Origin: Candidatus Micrarchaeia archaeon
GTDB lineage: Archaea; Micrarchaeota; Micrarchaeia; CABMEP01
NCBI GenBank assembly: GCA_038886535.1
Contig: JAVZXS010000009.1
Location: 1 to 20,223 of the forward strand
Length of the DNA stretch: 20,223 bases
Direction: 5' to 3'
Each line of letters opens with the position of its first letter. Position 1 is the stretch's first letter. The position numbers and the translations under genes are program-made. A model generated the notes under the pieces. It was not told the origin of the DNA, ran no database searches, and saw only the letters and a program-made list of their open reading frames with translations. Positions 1 through 14,550 of this stretch are shown here, piece by piece.

Positions 1-1674
1 GAAATTTCAGAGATAAGTTATAGTTCTGATAATAATGGCACATTAACAATTAAGCTCAAAAGGGAAGATGGCTTCAGGGAATTAACAATTGATAATTATG
101 GAATAGCGACAAGTAATAATTATAAAGGGAATGGATTGGACCATTGGTGGGGAATATATTACGGGGAATTACAGAATATAGCAGGTGCTTATAAATATGC
201 TTATGCTTATTATAATTCAAAAACAGGGCATATGAGCAATTTATCACCTATTGCTGAAATCAGAAGTCCATATAAGAAATTTAATATCTGTATTACAAGC
301 TGGAATAATTTAGCCGATAATGACCCGAATTATAGTTATGAATATGACACAATAATATTTTTCAGGAGTGTAGATGGGGGAGTGCTATTATACGAAACAG
401 GGAGAATATCCTCTACCTTTACTCCGAGCGGTTATAATGATTATTATTATGATAACAAATTAGATACAGAAATTGGACCCACAATAGGTGAACAATACTA
501 CAATGCACCTCCACCTGAATTTCTGGCAATAGAAGAATGGAACGGAAGAATATGGGGTATATCTGCTTTGGAAAGAGATAAACTTTATTATTCTATGGAC
601 GAAATACAGCTGGCTTCAAGGAGCAATTGCGGGAGAGCGGAAGAATGTTATCCTGCAACAAATTATCTTGTGATACCTGCGGAGGACGGGAAAATAACAG
701 GAATAAAAAAGGCAGGGGATTATCTATATGTGGCAACAGATGTTAGTTTATATGTGGTGGTTGGTTCCGATGAAATGACTTTTTCTTTGGAGAAAATATT
801 TTCAGGACACGGGATAAAGCAGGAAGCAATGTGTGAATATTCTGGTATATTAAGCAGGAGACCAGGATTGTTTTTCATATCAAATAATTATCAGGCATTC
901 GTTATAACTCCAGATATAATTAAAAATGTTGGAGAACCGATAGAAGATTTATTAAAAGAAGCATCATATTCAAATTCAGAAGTGAGTGTCTATAAAATTA
1001 ACACGGCTCTCTCAAATAGTTTTTCAATATATTCAAACATTTATTATGAAAGCATAAAAGCAAGAAATTATATCATAGTCAGCTTTTTGAATTCCAATGG
1101 AGCAAGAAAAAACTATGTTTATGACCTTGAATTTGATGAATGGTATGAGATGGATTTTAGGTATGGGAGCGGGGCAGGTGATATATTATGCCCATTTTTT
1201 GCTACAACAAATATCTTTGGTATTCCAATAGCCGTAGGAGCATATATAGATTTAAGCACAAATTATTATTTAACACCTGTTGCAATATTCAATGATTACT
1301 ATCATCTTGATGATGGCATTTCTTACGATGCATATATCAGAACAAGCTGGCTTGATTTTGATAATAGGGAATTATTTAAAGCATTGGTGATGGGAAAAAT
1401 CTTTACCCCATCAATTGGAGCATTTACAACGACATTATTTAAAGATGAAGAGAGCACTCCTATTACATTAAAAAGCTCAAATTATTCTATACAGGAATAT
1501 CCTTATCAGGAAGGTAAAGAATATAGTTTAATATATTTAAATAGAGATGCTTCACAAATAATGGGACATTTATTTAGCGTTAGAATTATGTATCCAAATA
1601 CTGCTCCAAAAGAGCAAATATACAATTTACAGTTCCTTTTCCAGCGTATAGGAGTGGACCCAAATGAGCGGTGA
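1..1674 (+). CDS. Phage tail nozzle/stabilisation-like protein (P22 gp10 / tail tubular B-like position), 5'-truncated
   Basis: Frame 1 is open from base 1 (EISEISYSSDNNG...), so the TTG at 136 is not the real start. The product is Tyr/Asn-rich and beta-strand-like. Segments 'YKYAYAYYNSKTGHMSNLSP', 'IFFRSVDGG', 'NAPPP..IEEWNGRIWG..LYYS..E.YP..NY..DGKITG' and C-terminal 'AYIRTSWLDFD' resemble phage beta-propeller tail proteins. It lies upstream of the ejection-protein genes. Confidence 0.6.
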   Translation, partial: EISEISYSSDNNGTLTIKLKREDGFRELTIDNYGIATSNNYKGNGLDHWWGIYYGELQNIAGAYKYAYAYYNSKTGHMSNLSPIAEIRSPYKKFNICITSWNNLADNDPNYSYEYDTIIFFRSVDGGVLLYETGRISSTFTPSGYNDYYYDNKLDTEIGPTIGEQYYNAPPPEFLAIEEWNGRIWGISALERDKLYYSMDEIQLASRSNCGRAEECYPATNYLVIPAEDGKITGIKKAGDYLYVATDVSLYVVVGSDEMTFSLEKIFSGHGIKQEAMCEYSGILSRRPGLFFISNNYQAFVITPDIIKNVGEPIEDLLKEASYSNSEVSVYKINTALSNSFSIYSNIYYESIKARNYIIVSFLNSNGARKNYVYDLEFDEWYEMDFRYGSGAGDILCPFFATTNIFGIPIAVGAYIDLSTNYYLTPVAIFNDYYHLDDGISYDAYIRTSWLDFDNRELFKALVMGKIFTPSIGAFTTTLFKDEESTPITLKSSNYSIQEYPYQEGKEYSLIYLNRDASQIMGHLFSVRIMYPNTAPKEQIYNLQFLFQRIGVDPNER

Positions 1675-4600
1675 TAGTATAGTTCCAACAATTCCTCCAC
1701 CATCACCCCCATCTTCTGGTGGAGGGGAGCCAAAGAATGATAGATATGGGAGTGGAGGATATTTTTCGGGTGGAGATAATTCTGGAAGGGGAGGAAAAGG
1801 GGGTGGATTTACCGAGCCACTACCATATTTTAGAATAATTAGAAGGCACGGGCACTATTATTGGTATGTAAATTTCAGATATGAGCCTCATTGGGGCGAA
1901 TATTCTGTATGCATATATCATATTAGGACAAATGTAGATTGGCAGGACTTAAGCAATGATGAAAAGCAAAAAATATACGATATGGCAGAATTGGTATGGG
2001 AAGTGGCAAATGATACATCAAAAGAGAAAAGATTTAGTGAATACTATAAATCAATAGATGATAAATACCAGAATGGATATTATTTTGCGAGAGCAAAAGT
2101 AAAGGATAAGCTTGGAAAACCCACTGTATGCCAGCCATTTCCTGTTGAAGGGACTTTTGTTATACCTGACAAATTAAAAAGTTTTTATATAGAAGAAAGT
2201 CCTTATTATGTTAACAATTATACAAATCCTGTTAGTTGTCTAACAATTGCTTATTCACCTCCGCAAAATATGACTGGTTTTTGGGGCGTTAAATTATACA
2301 TACAGGGCTATCACGGGGATAATGAAATCAGGGAACTGGCGATAAAGAAATATGATAAAACAAAAGGGGATATGGATATTTTTAATATTTTTTTAGAGCC
2401 AGATGATAATGTGCTATTAGAGAATTATATTGTTGGAGATAGCGAAGAAGAAAATTTTAATAACATAATGTTTCCTGTTAAAAGAGCATTTAAGGTTGAT
2501 TATATCAGCAATTCCCCGGAAGCAATACAAATTGAAATGTATGAATATAATTATCTGACAAGTCAATGGCAAGCCTCTGACCCAAATGGGAATTTTTATT
2601 TAGACAATAGAACAAGGATTGGGGATACAATTATATTGACTGCAGGGGGGTCAGGTCCAACTGGGTATGAGATTGAAGCAATAATTAAAGAATATGATGC
2701 CACATATCCGCACAGAAAGGCAAGGTGTATATTAAAGAATAATCCTTCTGATATAAATCCTCCCACTTATTCAGATGGCAGCATAAGTCCTTATTTAAAT
2801 TGGAAAGTGGTTAGTAGTTGTAAATTTTATTTAGTATCAATAAATGAATATGGATATCACGGCGATTTAGAAAGCGAAGCATTAGTCCAGTATTGTGCTC
2901 TGGATGGTTTGGAAAGTGCACCAGTTCCACCTTTGTCAGTAGAAGCTTATCAATGCGAAAATCAAAATGTAGTGTCTTTTATATATCCGCATACAGCCAT
3001 AGATTTTGATGACTTGGATAGTTTTAATATTTATAGATCAAAATCAAATGATTTAACCTGGCGAAAAATAGCAACAATTAAAGCAAAATCAAGTTATGAG
3101 ACAGGCTCACCTGTTGGCTCTTCAGAACCATATAAATATGTTGATGGTGATATGGCAAATTTATACTGGGATGGGCAGACCTGGAATTATGATATATATG
3201 TATGGTATGGGGTTGCAACAGTTGATAAAGCAGGGAGAGAGAGTATTATCCAGGTAGCAACGCATTATTTGATAGATGGAACTGTATCAGATGGAATACC
3301 TTTCAGGAGAGGGACAGGTGTTGATCATTCACCTGTGACAGTGGTAAGAGGGGAAGTGTTCAATTTGTTTTATAATTCTGAAGCAAGTTGGGATTATTTT
3401 TCAGGAGAAATTACGGGGACAGGAAATGCACATTATAATGATTGGGCACTTTGGGGACCTGATACGGAGGTGGCTCCTGGCTCTGGCACAATAGCACATC
3501 CAGGCGTTAGTATGACCTGGCTTGCTTCTTCCTTTAGGTTCAGGATTAATTTTTCTACAGCAAATGAAAGGAATAAATGGATAAGAATATTAACACAAAG
3601 TAATTCTACGCCAATACCTTCATCCTCCGATATTACATATCAGGTGCGTGATTATATTGGATTGGGGAGGGCTAAATTAATAATACCAGGGGTTCAATAT
3701 TATTGCAGAATAAATTACTTATTTGCACAATATACAAACAATTATTTATATATTTATCCAGACACCCAGGAATTGCCTGCTTTTGTATCAGATATATCCT
3801 TTTCAAAAGCAGAATATTTTATAAGCATTGCTCCCTATCAGCATTCGCTGCCGTTGCCAAATATATTTATTCACGAAGCAAATACATTAAATTATTTGGC
3901 TAATAAGCCATTATTCAGGAATGGCTGGATTTATATGCATAGTGGAAGTATGCCACCTGTATTTGAAAATGGAGTATTTGGTTTATATGCCCCAATAATA
4001 AGGCATTACTTAGAATTAACGAATAGCATAACAAATTTTAGTTTTACTTTAGGCTCCCATACTCTGGTATCAATTTCTGTATATGTAGAAATTCCCTTTA
4101 ATGGAACAAATAACAAGATAGATATAGGAGTATCTGGATGGCCTTATTATTTTATTAAGGATTTGGATGTATCTACAAGGGGCTGGAAATATTTTACATA
4201 TGAACACCCATTACCTTATTCTACTTCAGGAGTAACTTATGTGGGACAATATAAAGGAACTGGAGCAACGCAGGGAAGAGTGAATATTTATTTTGATGTT
4301 TATACATCTAATGTATCTGGTAGATGCTTATGGGAGCAAAGAATTAGGAAAAAGATAATTTATCCAGGTCAGGCAATAACATTTTCCTGTTTCCTTGCAC
4401 GAGATACTGTAATGAGTGCTGGGGGATTTAATTATGGAACTTTTAGTTTTTATATTAAACCAGAGACATATTATATTTTTGATGGTTATTTTAGTATGCC
4501 TTCTATGGATGATTATCAGGCAAGTATATCACTAAATGCTTGCAAAAATAGAACAGTGGGTGGGAATTTACAATATGAATATATAGTATTATATGGAGAA

Positions 4601-5236
4601 GTTCCTACAAATTATAATTGGGATAATGTAAAATATGTGAGAATGGGGGTGATAGCGGATTGGGGTCAAAATGATGCTAAATATAATTATATAATGACAA
4701 AACCAATGTTAAATTATGGCAATGAGGCAGCACCATATACAAATAAAAACCAGCCCGATAGATTAACTATGTATTCACCAAGCGAATATATTCCAGGCAA
4801 TACACCACCAAACCACGATGAAGATGACCCTATGTGTCTTGCTGAAGGTCAATATGTTATAATGTGGAATGGAGAAATGAAGCGGATTGAGGAATTAAAG
4901 ATTGGGGAAATGGTTAGGAGCATAGGAATGACAAGCACAATTAAGCATATTGATAAAGCAATGGATAGAGAAACAATGGTATTTATAATGGAAGGAAATC
5001 ATATATTAGAATGCACCCCAGAGCATTTATGTTTGACAGATATATTTATGCCAAAACCAGCAAAAGATATTAAAATTGGGGATGCTATGCTTACTATGGA
5101 TAACAAAAAAATAAGAGTTATGGATATAAGAAAGCGGAGAAATAATGTGTATAAAATTGAGACCTCTCTTCCTCACATTTTCTTGGTTAATGGCATATGG
5201 ACGCATAATGTAAAAGCAGGAGGAGGTGAATATTGA
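1664..5236 (+). CDS. Large tail/receptor-binding-like protein (1190 aa) with FN3-like domain, carbohydrate-binding-like region and C-terminal Hint domain
   Basis: Overlaps the upstream stop, with GGAG upstream. Pro/Gly-rich N-terminus; FN3-like segment 'APVPP...FNIYRS...WRKIA...YVD...YGVATVDKAGRES'; 'NLFYNSE...PMLNYGNEAAPY' bracket typical of phage tail CBM-like domains; intein motifs at the C-terminus. Confidence 0.75.
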   Translation: MSGDSIVPTIPPPSPPSSGGGEPKNDRYGSGGYFSGGDNSGRGGKGGGFTEPLPYFRIIRRHGHYYWYVNFRYEPHWGEYSVCIYHIRTNVDWQDLSNDEKQKIYDMAELVWEVANDTSKEKRFSEYYKSIDDKYQNGYYFARAKVKDKLGKPTVCQPFPVEGTFVIPDKLKSFYIEESPYYVNNYTNPVSCLTIAYSPPQNMTGFWGVKLYIQGYHGDNEIRELAIKKYDKTKGDMDIFNIFLEPDDNVLLENYIVGDSEEENFNNIMFPVKRAFKVDYISNSPEAIQIEMYEYNYLTSQWQASDPNGNFYLDNRTRIGDTIILTAGGSGPTGYEIEAIIKEYDATYPHRKARCILKNNPSDINPPTYSDGSISPYLNWKVVSSCKFYLVSINEYGYHGDLESEALVQYCALDGLESAPVPPLSVEAYQCENQNVVSFIYPHTAIDFDDLDSFNIYRSKSNDLTWRKIATIKAKSSYETGSPVGSSEPYKYVDGDMANLYWDGQTWNYDIYVWYGVATVDKAGRESIIQVATHYLIDGTVSDGIPFRRGTGVDHSPVTVVRGEVFNLFYNSEASWDYFSGEITGTGNAHYNDWALWGPDTEVAPGSGTIAHPGVSMTWLASSFRFRINFSTANERNKWIRILTQSNSTPIPSSSDITYQVRDYIGLGRAKLIIPGVQYYCRINYLFAQYTNNYLYIYPDTQELPAFVSDISFSKAEYFISIAPYQHSLPLPNIFIHEANTLNYLANKPLFRNGWIYMHSGSMPPVFENGVFGLYAPIIRHYLELTNSITNFSFTLGSHTLVSISVYVEIPFNGTNNKIDIGVSGWPYYFIKDLDVSTRGWKYFTYEHPLPYSTSGVTYVGQYKGTGATQGRVNIYFDVYTSNVSGRCLWEQRIRKKIIYPGQAITFSCFLARDTVMSAGGFNYGTFSFYIKPETYYIFDGYFSMPSMDDYQASISLNACKNRTVGGNLQYEYIVLYGEVPTNYNWDNVKYVRMGVIADWGQNDAKYNYIMTKPMLNYGNEAAPYTNKNQPDRLTMYSPSEYIPGNTPPNHDEDDPMCLAEGQYVIMWNGEMKRIEELKIGEMVRSIGMTSTIKHIDKAMDRETMVFIMEGNHILECTPEHLCLTDIFMPKPAKDIKIGDAMLTMDNKKIRVMDIRKRRNNVYKIETSLPHIFLVNGIWTHNVKAGGGEY
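2918..3244 (+). other. Fibronectin type III-like domain within the 1190-aa protein
   Basis: Starts at APVPP (aa ~419), contains FNIYRS and WRKIAT, and ends in the FN3-type terminal motif Y-x-V-x-x-V-D-K-A-G-R-E-S. Confidence 0.65.
4835..5209 (+). other. Hint (Hedgehog/intein) domain, bacterial intein-like (BIL) type, aa 1058-1182
   Basis: Block A CLAEGQYV (Cys1), IEELKIGEMV, block B CTPEH (TxxH), block F VYKIETSLPHIFLVNG, block G WTHN. It is 125 aa with no homing endonuclease, and the +1 residue is Val. Confidence 0.9.
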
Positions 5237-5673
5237 TTACCTATAAAGATGCAAAGATATATACAATAAACTATAACAAAATCAATAAAGCATTTCAGGT
5301 ATTACTTGAATATGAAGGGTATATGATATGTATTGATGTTAAATGGAAGGAAAATGATACACAGGAACAATTTATTGAAAGAGCATATGCAGGAGCCCAA
5401 TTTTATACAGAGATAATGGAATACTTTACTGATGAAGATATAAAAATAGTAAATTTAATTGTTTATCCAGAGGTAAAAGATATATATAACTTTGCCATAA
5501 CGATAGGGAATAATTCTAACAGGAAAATAGGATATATAATGGCGACATCAAGCGATAGCAAGGATAGAATATTGACGAAGGCATTGGCTATTAAAAATAG
5601 TATGATGAAAGAAAGTATTGAAGAAAAAAGGAAAAAATTTATATTCAATATTAAGCAATATATAGGAGGATAA
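5233..5673 (+). CDS. Hypothetical protein (146 aa), coupled to the Hint-bearing tail gene
   Basis: TTG start overlapping the upstream TGA, preceded by a strong SD (GGAGGAGGTG). Fills the gap to the next gene exactly. Confidence 0.75.
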   Translation: MITYKDAKIYTINYNKINKAFQVLLEYEGYMICIDVKWKENDTQEQFIERAYAGAQFYTEIMEYFTDEDIKIVNLIVYPEVKDIYNFAITIGNNSNRKIGYIMATSSDSKDRILTKALAIKNSMMKESIEEKRKKFIFNIKQYIGG

Positions 5674-5674
5674 T

Positions 5675-6313
5675 ATGGGTTCTTCAAGGCGTTCAGCATA
5701 CGAGCAACAACTGGCAAGGGCAGCCCAGACACAAGCCGAAGAAGCGAAAAAATGGGGAGAACTTGCCAGACCTTATTATGAAAAGGCAATGAAGCAAATA
5801 TCATCACAACTTGATGAAGGATTTGGGGGATTACCGAAATATGTAAGGGAAGCATTTGAGACAATGGAAGGGCAGACAACTGAAGATTATGCTCTTGCAG
5901 GCAGGAAGGCAATAGCACAGCAACAGCAAATGCTTAAACAACAAGGAATTACAGGATTAAATCCAAGCGCACTTGCAATGCAACAAGGACTTATGCAGGA
6001 AAATCTTGCTATACAGCAAGCAAAAGCATTACAGGGATTAAGGATGCAGGAAGCAATGACTGGATTACAAACATCTATGGAACTAATAAATATGCTTAAA
6101 GGTGGAGGCTTGTCAGGAGCACAAATGGGATTAGGATATGGTGGACTGCAGGCAGATATGTTACAAACTCTTCTGCAAGGAGGCGGAGGAGACCCCTGGG
6201 GCAATGCTGCAGCAGGAGCGATAGCAGGAGCAGGTGCAGGTTCTAAAATATATCCAGGATGGGGAACTTTGATAGGGGCTCTATTAGGGGCTTATGCTGG
6301 TTATAGGAGTTGA
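5675..6313 (+). CDS. Putative DNA ejection/pilot protein (P22 gp7-like), Gln/Ala/Gly-rich with C-terminal glycine zipper
   Basis: SD GGAGG; MGS start; Q/A/M-rich helical body; C-terminal 'AAAGAIAGAGAGS..PGWGTLIGALLGAYAG' GxxxG zipper; first of three size-ascending genes after the tail genes. Confidence 0.65.
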   Translation: MGSSRRSAYEQQLARAAQTQAEEAKKWGELARPYYEKAMKQISSQLDEGFGGLPKYVREAFETMEGQTTEDYALAGRKAIAQQQQMLKQQGITGLNPSALAMQQGLMQENLAIQQAKALQGLRMQEAMTGLQTSMELINMLKGGGLSGAQMGLGYGGLQADMLQTLLQGGGGDPWGNAAAGAIAGAGAGSKIYPGWGTLIGALLGAYAGYRS

Positions 6314-13643: not shown

Positions 13644-13915
13644 AAGAAATTATTGCACTAATGGGAACACTTATTGCACTTATGACCTTTTTCTGGATGA
13701 TGACAAACAGGAATATATGCAAAATTATAGAAAATGCTATCAAAAATCACAAAGAGGACCAGAATGCCCACTATATTTACACTGATAGGAACACACTTAA
13801 TCTTACTTATGAAAAATTGATAGCAAAGCTTGAAACAATGAATAAAGAACTTATTGATTTAAGAGAAGAATTGCATCTTTTTAAAGAAAGATTAAGCACA
13901 AAATTTGATTTATAG
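13640..13915 (+). CDS. Small membrane protein, holin-like (single N-terminal TM helix plus C-terminal coiled coil)
   Basis: ATGA overlap with the upstream stop and SD GAGGAGG. Hydrophobic IIALMGTLIALMTFFWMM followed by a heptad-like LIAKLETMNKELIDLREEL. Sits at the end of the late operon. Confidence 0.5.
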   Translation: MKEIIALMGTLIALMTFFWMMTNRNICKIIENAIKNHKEDQNAHYIYTDRNTLNLTYEKLIAKLETMNKELIDLREELHLFKERLSTKFDL

Positions 13916-13924
13916 GAGGATATT

Positions 13925-14131
13925 ATGGCAAAAGAAAAATGGATACAAAAAGCAGTATCTAAAATGAAAAGAAAAGGAACAGTTGGGTCGCTAACACGAG
14001 CGGCAAAAAAAGCAGGGGCCTATAAGGGAGGCAAAATTTCTCTTGAATATCTTCAATCTCTGCTAAAAAAAGGCGGGAAAATGGCTAAAAAAGCACGATT
14101 TGCCCTTGCTATGCGTAAAATTAAGCGATAA
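13925..14131 (+). CDS. Small highly basic protein (68 aa), putative nucleic-acid-binding/condensing virion protein
   Basis: SD AGGAGG. K/R/A/G-rich with only two acidic residues. The 'KWIQKA...G.L...KKARFA..MRK' pattern resembles a recurrent small basic viral protein family. Confidence 0.7.
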   Translation: MAKEKWIQKAVSKMKRKGTVGSLTRAAKKAGAYKGGKISLEYLQSLLKKGGKMAKKARFALAMRKIKR

Positions 14132-14202
14132 TCAATTTTTCATTTTTGCCTATCTAATCACCCTACCCCATTAAAGAAAATTGATTATAGGGCAAATATG
14201 AA
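14128..14202. repeat. Interlocking inverted repeats (A-B-A'-B')
   Basis: ATAATCAATTTT (14128-14139) is perfectly complementary to AAAATTGATTAT (14177-14188). TTCATTTTTGCCTAT (14139-14153) is imperfectly complementary to ATAGGGCAAATATGAA (14187-14202). Confidence 0.75.
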
Positions 14203-14243
14203 GGCGATTTTTTCCTTGATTTTATGATAATTAAAATCTCCGC

Positions 14244-14273
14244 TTGACAAGTATTTTATTTTTATGTTATTAT
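14244..14273 (+). promoter_or_regulatory. Sigma70/SigA-type promoter with extended -10
   Basis: Perfect TTGACA (14244-14249), 18-bp spacer, TG-n-TATTAT (TG 14265-14266, -10 at 14268-14273). Confidence 0.7.
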
Positions 14274-14279
14274 GAAAAT

Positions 14280-14348
14280 GCATAAGGATTAACCTTTAAA
14301 TGAGGTTAGCTTTAAAAGCCACTTGCCCGCCTGCAAGTGGTTTTTTTT
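14280..14348 (+). ncRNA. Candidate ~70-nt small RNA with two hairpins
   Basis: Bounded by the promoter and an intrinsic terminator. Internal hairpin TAACCTT-TAAAT-GAGGTTA (14290-14308). No plausible SD-led ORF. Confidence 0.5.
14314..14348 (+). terminator. Rho-independent terminator, probably bidirectional
   Basis: AAAA-GCCACTTGC-CCGCCT-GCAAGTGGT-TTTTTTT: GC-rich stem, T8 on the + side and an A4 run upstream (U tract for the - strand). Lies between convergent operons. Confidence 0.85.
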
Positions 14349-14414
14349 ATGATTTTTTTTATTAAAAACCTTATCCAAAAATAAAGCAGTTAGTAATTGA
14401 CTTCTTAATTTTAA

Positions 14415-14464
14415 TTTCCGACCAAAAGTGTCCCTTTTCCGACCAAAAGTGTCCTTTTTGACAC
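14415..14464. repeat. Two tandem 21-bp direct repeats (iteron-like) plus inverted GTGTC/GACAC
   Basis: TTTCCGACCAAAAGTGTCCCT (14415-14435) and TTTCCGACCAAAAGTGTCCTT (14436-14456), 20/21 identical. GTGTC (14449-14453) is inverted to GACAC (14460-14464). Confidence 0.9.
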
Positions 14465-14550
14465 GCCCCCTTATACTATTGAAAGACCAATAATTATAAA
14501 TAAATAATCTTGAATTATGTTTTTCCTTTGAAATTATCTTAAAAACATTA

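Follow-up and report, generated by a model that had tools for sequence, protein, structure and literature searches.

A type-A-BIL-like Hint domain proposed to remove itself from a putative tail protein of a probably short-tailed phage

Described Hint systems and the C-terminal domain of the window protein

BIL2 of Tetrahymena BUBL1 is a Hint domain that lacks a +1 nucleophile. It is flanked by ubiquitin-like domains and activated by zinc, and it is reported to form K(epsilon) isopeptides and also to join its N-extein to the Lys of a separate protein (available part of PMC8616854). Type-A BILs (Amitai 2003 and Dassa 2004, as summarised in the available parts of PMC4031507 and PMC7765530), which sit before toxins or within hypervariable bacterial proteins, have Cys1, TxxH and His-Asn but neither a +1 nucleophile nor an endonuclease. 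In the accessible portion of PMC4031507 they splice via attack of the freed amino group, whereas in that of PMC7765530 they cleave but cannot ligate. The Hog domain of Hedgehog is a C-terminal Hint that frees the N-terminal part, and the S74 chaperone likewise holds a C-terminal, self-removing position on virion appendages (PMC7824862, in part). The accessible portions of PMC3556154, PMC5259590, PMC12220804, PMC7824862 and PMC3482391 have ordinary phage inteins, S74 domains or toxin Hints as their subjects, and a literature search, with most subscription papers and the primary BIL papers outside its scope, returned no paper describing a phage tail protein that ends in a Hint.

Here we analysed a DNA stretch of 20,223 nucleotides (the window), which makes up one entire contig in an archaeal bin. 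Its 1190-aa ORF ends in a 125-aa Hint domain with Cys1, block-B TxxH, block-F His and terminal His-Asn, closed by the tail VKAGGGEY (Table 1). A preliminary description had reported these features together with Val at +1 and Lys at F:4; all were recovered by re-reading the ORF and by alignment to the gp41-1 intein (E 2.3e-4), which has Asp at F:4 where the window Hint has Lys. The domain is as short as mini-inteins and leaves no room for an endonuclease, the absence of which had been noted before.

Table 1. Positions of the features of the Hint-capped gene and its neighbours in the window
Feature	Position	Strand	Basis or remark
Upstream virion gene, 5' end cut off, nozzle-like by position only	1..1674	+	Related loci
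1190-aa ORF, putative virion tail / receptor-binding protein bearing the Hint cap	1664..5236	+	Gene order, BFVD
Predicted FN3/Ig-like domains, aa ~53-549, three via tandem-FN3 matches	1820..3310	+	VIA
Predicted galactose-binding-like / CBM-type jelly roll with large inserts, aa 563-1029	3350..4750	+	VIA
Disordered Pro/acidic linker, ending Asp-Asp-Pro-Met	4751..4834	+	pLDDT
Hint domain, aa 1058-1182, 125 aa	4835..5209	+	Motifs, AlphaFold model, structure matches
Hint Cys1 (Cys1058), directly after Met1057	4835	+
Thr B:7 (Thr1118)	5015	+
His B:10 (His1121), with Thr1118 the block-B TxxH	5024	+
Clade-specific Cys, two residues after the block-B His	5030	+
Lys F:4 (Lys1164)	5153	+
His F:13 (His1171)	5174	+
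Terminal His-Asn (His1181-Asn1182), end of Hint	5204-5209	+
Eight-residue tail VKAGGGEY, +1 Val, conserved Lys+2 (5213-5215), then stop	5210..5236	+
Shine-Dalgarno-like GGAGGAGGT of the next gene	5219..5227	+	Encodes tail Gly-Gly-Gly
146-aa ORF overlapping the Hint-protein stop codon	5233..5673	+	ORF of 150-175 aa at the same place in both related loci

With an alignment of 39 rows, AlphaFold modelled the Hint domain at block pLDDT values of 83-97; as a single sequence the Hint region reached a pLDDT of 33. The model adopts the horseshoe-shaped all-beta Hint fold. Structural comparison in VIA revealed that it most closely resembles the gp41-1 intein (6riz), with a Z of 19.8 and an rmsd of 1.6 over 125 aligned residues, and that it also matches BUBL1 BIL2 (PDB 6y75 and 6tmm; Z 18.5), the Hog domain (PDB 1at0; Z 18.3) and the BIL of C. 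thermocellum (PDB 2lwy; Z 18.0, rmsd 1.8). By this predicted fold, residues 1058-1182 are confirmed as a genuine Hint domain, as the structure prediction suggested in the preliminary description was to establish. The Pfam search suggested alongside it succeeded in part: the Hint domain alone matched Hom_end_hint (E 6.6e-6), Hint (2.5e-4) and Intein_splicing (4.2e-4), all under the cut-off, and PT-HINT matched none of the six close family members, window protein included. Two of the three distant homologues described below scored 18.4 and 24.3 bits on PT-HINT against a cut-off of 27.7.

The window protein has Cys1 and the block-B Thr and His, and His-Asn without a +1 nucleophile occurs in 9/9 homologues. 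Judged by these motifs, the window Hint is of the kind that would work like a type-A BIL. The two differ in location, since the window Hint ends a putative phage virion protein at a syntenic position and is conserved like the rest of that protein, whereas type-A BILs occupy hypervariable regions of bacterial proteins that are not conserved. The window family also differs from type-A BILs in its basic F:4, invariant Met(-1) and Lys at +1 or +2. Compared to BIL2, the C-flank is a short peptide; compared to Hog, the family lacks the sterol-recognition region and retains His-Asn, which sets it outside the Hog group. The S74 chaperone is unlike the window Hint in fold and in its Ser/Lys chemistry, and Pfam found no S74 domain in the ten proteins scanned, the terminal domain being of the Hint fold.

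Carrier protein, gene block and source contig

The body of the 1190-aa protein is predicted to consist of FN3 domains and a jelly roll. VIA matched FN3 chains with Z of 9.3-10.5 (model ranges 417-549, 164-549 and 53-549), and the jelly roll matched a phi812 baseplate chain (Z 11.0), the CBM 2c4x (10.5), and CBM22 and CBM15 (9.6). EphA ligand-binding domains score like the CBMs, so the CBM matches do not in themselves indicate sugar binding by the predicted jelly roll. The linker between body and Hint has a pLDDT < 50 at residues 1020-1054 of the AlphaFold model. An inserted beta-rich module (3995-4170, aa ~778-835) is found in the window protein, P0004 and P0008 and is absent from P0005-P0007; it apparently occurs twice in P0004, as modular exchange within the jelly-roll region.

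Two related loci, L001 and L002, have a gene order in common: first the portal, then a gene of scaffold size and the major head protein, next a run of three or four genes, and after these a gene of nozzle size, the Hint-capped protein, a small ORF, a Gly-zipper protein and finally large helical proteins. Upstream of the Hint-capped gene, PHROGs identified the portal (E 1e-11) and major head protein (E 1e-41) in L002 and the major head protein (E 7e-35) in L001. This order follows the gene layout of podoviruses, on which basis we read it as that of a short-tailed phage. The carrier virus is thus probably short-tailed, and the order points to a tail or receptor-binding role for the Hint-capped protein. 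The 1190-aa ORF itself matched no PHROGs family, and in BFVD it is matched at the top of the list, though at low TM-scores, by minor tail, tip-attachment and FN3 proteins. On its predicted FN3 and CBM-type domains and its place in a virion gene block, it is likely a tail protein; the earlier label of phage tail protein gains fold and gene order in its favour and no family match.

The upstream virion gene shares 37% identity with its L001 counterpart and matches that of L002 at E 1.8e-26; its PHROGs matches are weak (E 0.002-0.003), and no match in the PDB or Pfam names it a nozzle. The 146-aa ORF shares 15-16% identity with its positional counterparts and has no usable match in the Atlas. An acetyltransferase partner was considered for it and is not supported, as the match (E 0.005) lies under the cut-off and the Atlas structure neighbours are unrelated (TM ~0.5). 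Further downstream, a 1952-aa protein scored 95.5 bits on the PLxRFG model against a cut-off of 100, and a 68-aa basic protein (13925-14131), with weak matches to fusellovirus VP2 (Pfam E 0.021) and phrog_15706 (E 1e-4), is possibly a DNA-binding virion protein. The 212-aa Gly-zipper gene encodes a probable ejection protein; within it, at 6109-6251, one hot-spring contig differs at ~30 listed positions and is near-identical elsewhere, marking a hypervariable or recombined patch. Among the related loci, L001 encodes a 1936-aa protein with a GGDEF-like domain (15888-21698; E 2e-6, over the cut-off), and in L002 the small ORF and the Gly-zipper gene are separated by an inserted gene resembling a pentapeptide-repeat protein (13895-14521).

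The bin carries what we take to be archaeal markers, recognised by their motifs. The tetranucleotide distance of the window contig from the main contigs of the bin is 0.255 vs a null maximum of 0.164, hence bin membership does not fix the host of the virus. For the small bin contigs C6-C21, 15/16 are more distant from the main contigs by tetranucleotide composition than is any 20-kb stretch of C1-C3, the shorter contigs being noisier in this comparison, and on account of these outliers the bin probably contains foreign DNA. Two hot-spring runs of one study, which possibly include the source sample of the window, yielded contigs spanning the region with a single conservative change in the Hint, an A>G at 4901 that replaces Ile by Val, the catalytic codons, tail and stop being unchanged. 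In two runs, a single long contig apiece matches the two short stretches 4586-4615 and 5305-5322, which may be due to chance; the letters beside the former match include a short palindrome, possibly a CRISPR repeat.

Homologue family and the conserved C-terminal lysine

A word-index search yielded three homologues, and a profile search against 1.84 billion representatives gave five matches at E < 1e-30 (P0004-P0008), each ending in a Hint. No Hint-less allele occurs among these five close relatives, where the N-terminal part alone would have given a score. Together with the window protein and three distant homologues (P0066, P0092 and P0116) they form a set of nine. The distant three, whose C-termini read His-Asn-Lys followed by 4-8 residues, were found via the Hint, so Hint-less distant members would escape. 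Homology of the distant three persists with the Hint removed (hhalign 85.9%, E 5.2e-6, 738 columns; reversed control 0.1%), and singly their N-terminal parts score 22.4, 11.5 and 6.3 bits, which rank 1, 2 and 4 of 145 and are not library-significant. P0116 is moreover syntenic with the window locus. In Hint trees, the second of which included 31 other domains, the close group forms one clade and the distant group another; a single origin of the nine Hints (p-AU 0.59) is neither rejected nor shown.

Scans for further loci with the window protein or close-family alignments returned nothing from viral, metagenome and genome contigs, nor did a scan of viral contigs with the distant alignment. Scans with the neighbouring genes for Hint-less alleles returned solely the L001 contig, and further protein searches added no family member. 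Among cultured phages no family member was found and the window Hint was unmatched; with P0116 as query, 12 records came up, each matching over the Hint alone at 12-14% cover, and a generic Hint query gave 27, of which the three loci inspected have Hints inside other proteins and not as terminal caps. Four of 40 related archaeal genomes gave matches, three Hint-only and one weak (E 3.5e-5) across the linker region. Two loci from archaeal relatives of the bin (L006 and L007, at G014:C3 and G019:C7) carry tandem Hint arrays with His-Asn-Lys-Gly junctions, which resemble many of the profile-search matches, and P0022, P0029 and P0133 among these matches are BUBL-like, with Hint domains between ubiquitin-like repeats.

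All nine homologues have a C-terminal Hint, Cys1, His-Asn and no Cys/Ser/Thr at +1, where the residues are V, A, M, M, M, I, K, K and K. Cys1, His and Asn are three of only five invariant Hint columns, down to 18% identity. The Hint (26-90% identity) and the rest of the protein (24-83%) are equally conserved. The close family shows no variation (6/6) at Asp(-3), Met(-1), Cys1, the Cys that follows the block-B His by two residues, His-Asn, Lys+2 and Gly+4, and its acidic N-flank is conserved; elsewhere, Met(-1) occurs in 1/242 and Asp(-3) in 11/242 other Hint domains. These data bear out the preliminary description in its view of a BIL-like domain fixed at the C-terminus (5/5 close matches carry the Hint) and in its exclusion of canonical splicing.

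The tail after the Hint is 4-9 residues long in 9/9 homologues and has a Lys at +2 in 6/6 close members or at +1 in 3/3 distant ones. A similar preference extends beyond the family. In the other 145 of the best 150 of 1180 profile matches, a set that takes in the three distant homologues as well as a fragment, the domains ending in His-Asn among the matches listed number 233, of which 208 lack Cys/Ser/Thr at +1; 174 of these 208 have Lys at +1 or +2. For internal domains among the best 150 of 1180 matches, Lys+1 occurs in 118/163 and Lys+2 in 22/45 of the remainder, the latter count being biased upward by a query profile that contained Lys+2 and had no Lys+1; Lys at +3 to +8 stands at 1-7, with a background of 5.7%. 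Lys after internal domains is not explicable by a ribosome-binding site. At the window gene end, GGAGGAGGT lies five bases before the TTG of the next gene, and purine-rich tracts occupy the equivalent place in L001 and L002. Since the Gly codons coincide with this Shine-Dalgarno-like tract, Gly+4 need not be selected at the protein level. The tract does not take in the Lys codon in the window or L002, but possibly does so in L001. A frameshift fusing the tail to the next ORF is ruled out for the window, where the -1 frame stops just upstream.

Proposed self-removal and alternative explanations

We propose, at a probability of roughly 0.55, that the window protein belongs to the virion tail of a phage that is probably short-tailed, and bears an active type-A-BIL-like Hint cap which removes itself post-translationally. 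An N-S shift would create a thioester at Met1057-Cys1058, which an amine in the protein's own short tail would then resolve in cis, failing which water would do so; candidate amines are the epsilon-amine of Lys1184 and the alpha-amine freed by cyclisation of Asn1182. Asn cyclisation would release the 125-aa Hint, and the mature protein would end at Met1057, either free or capped with the eight-residue peptide. Self-removal is favoured by the type-A BIL and BIL2 chemistry described in the available parts of PMC4031507 and PMC8616854 and by BIL2 being the best PDB match of the nine-sequence family profile (E 1e-12). Against ligation counts the dominance of cleavage products in type-A BILs, according to the available text of PMC4031507. 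Release of the N-terminal part alone would not need His-Asn, yet His-Asn is invariant. As the cap would delete itself, the data do not separate a tolerated passenger from a maturation step. We know of no benefit from capping a protein with a short peptide. In excluding canonical splicing, the preliminary description missed the amine ligation without a +1 nucleophile of type-A BILs (PMC4031507, in part), and its account of the chemistry overlooked the BIL2 Lys isopeptides (PMC8616854, in part), the Lys at +1 or +2 in 9/9 and the invariant His-Asn.

A bolder and rather doubtful reading takes the domain as a lysine-dependent intein-like transpeptidase, which would transfer the tail protein from the Met1057 thioester to a Lys epsilon-amine in cis or on a neighbouring subunit. 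The product would be isopeptide-capped or cross-linked appendages of a hot-spring virus, and the active site of the clade would have been retuned for amine acceptors by way of the basic F:4, the bulky Met(-1) and the extra Cys. F:4 as an amine nucleophile is disfavoured, because Arg and His also occur there.

Whether the Hint acts at all is less straightforward than its description as catalytically complete had suggested, and the expectation that its catalytic residues would prove conserved among homologues was borne out for the terminal position, Cys1, His-Asn and the non-nucleophilic +1 in 9/9, but not for the block-B His. F:4 is K, K, K, K, R and H in the close family (basic in 6/6) and A, D and T in the distant three; elsewhere, among the matches listed, it is Asn in 172/210 and Asp in 16/210 other domains. 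Block B has His in 5/6 close members, with Thr in 4/6 and Ser in 2/6; in P0007, Gln replaces the His and Ser the Thr, and in P0006 the F:13 His is Asn. All three deviations count against activity. In an Ssp DnaB intein without this His, a bulky -1 residue restored the N-S shift; Leu, His and Phe were tried and Met was not among them (available part of PMC6333167, section 7). By analogy, the invariant Met(-1) may compensate for the missing block-B His. The Hint could instead have lost most of its activity and serve the tail protein in structure, binding or assembly, a reading which the basic F:4, the missing block-B His in 1/6, the long branches and the Pfam scores under threshold would accommodate. 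We nevertheless consider this unlikely, because Cys1 and His-Asn are invariant in 9/9 while most surface positions vary, and the scissile junction keeps Met(-1) and Asp(-3) in 6/6.

Ligation in trans, in which a held Met1057 thioester is attacked by a Lys or other amine of a neighbouring subunit, virion protein or host surface, appears improbable. BIL2, the best PDB match, does join its N-extein to the Lys of a separate protein (PMC8616854, in part), the long disordered linker could reach a partner, and the acidic N-flank is conserved; however, no acceptor was found, the 4-9 residues after the Hint (9/9) hold no sterol- or adduct-recognition region, and the Lys that is conserved is positioned in cis, within 1-2 residues of the active site. 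The suggested cross-linking to another protein, a small molecule or the host thus found no backing. The same holds for the suggested analogy to S74, by which the Hint would fold or oligomerise the tail protein as an intramolecular chaperone and then be shed, and which we regard as quite improbable. S74 domains serve trimeric beta-helices. The body of the window protein is instead predicted as FN3 plus jelly roll with no beta-helix in the model, 35 disordered linker residues part it from the Hint, and the invariant His-Asn would be superfluous for shedding alone; on the other side stand the C-terminal position, as for S74 domains (PMC7824862, in part), and the Hint in every close homologue found. 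That an ordinary class-1 mini-intein was inserted near the protein end is barely credible. The gp41-1 intein is the best structural match (Z 19.8), but 0/9 homologues have Cys/Ser/Thr at +1, which contradicts class 1, and no empty allele was found, in agreement with the earlier view that this is not an ordinary intein. Class 3, which has Cys at F:4 (PMC4031507, in part), fails as well, since F:4 is never Cys in the nine homologues.

To what is described of BIL-like domains, the family adds, within one orthologous group, Lys at +2 or +1, a basic F:4 and an invariant Met(-1), in addition to one member without the block-B His. If the domain only cleaves or is inactive, it would be a further example of a BIL-like domain carried by a protein of an uncultured phage. 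If active as proposed, it would extend Hint self-processing to virion assembly, offer a compact 125-aa domain of a hot-spring virus for direct testing of lysine ligation, which could yield a protein-ligation tool, and bear on how BILs without a +1 nucleophile work and why many of them carry a Lys.
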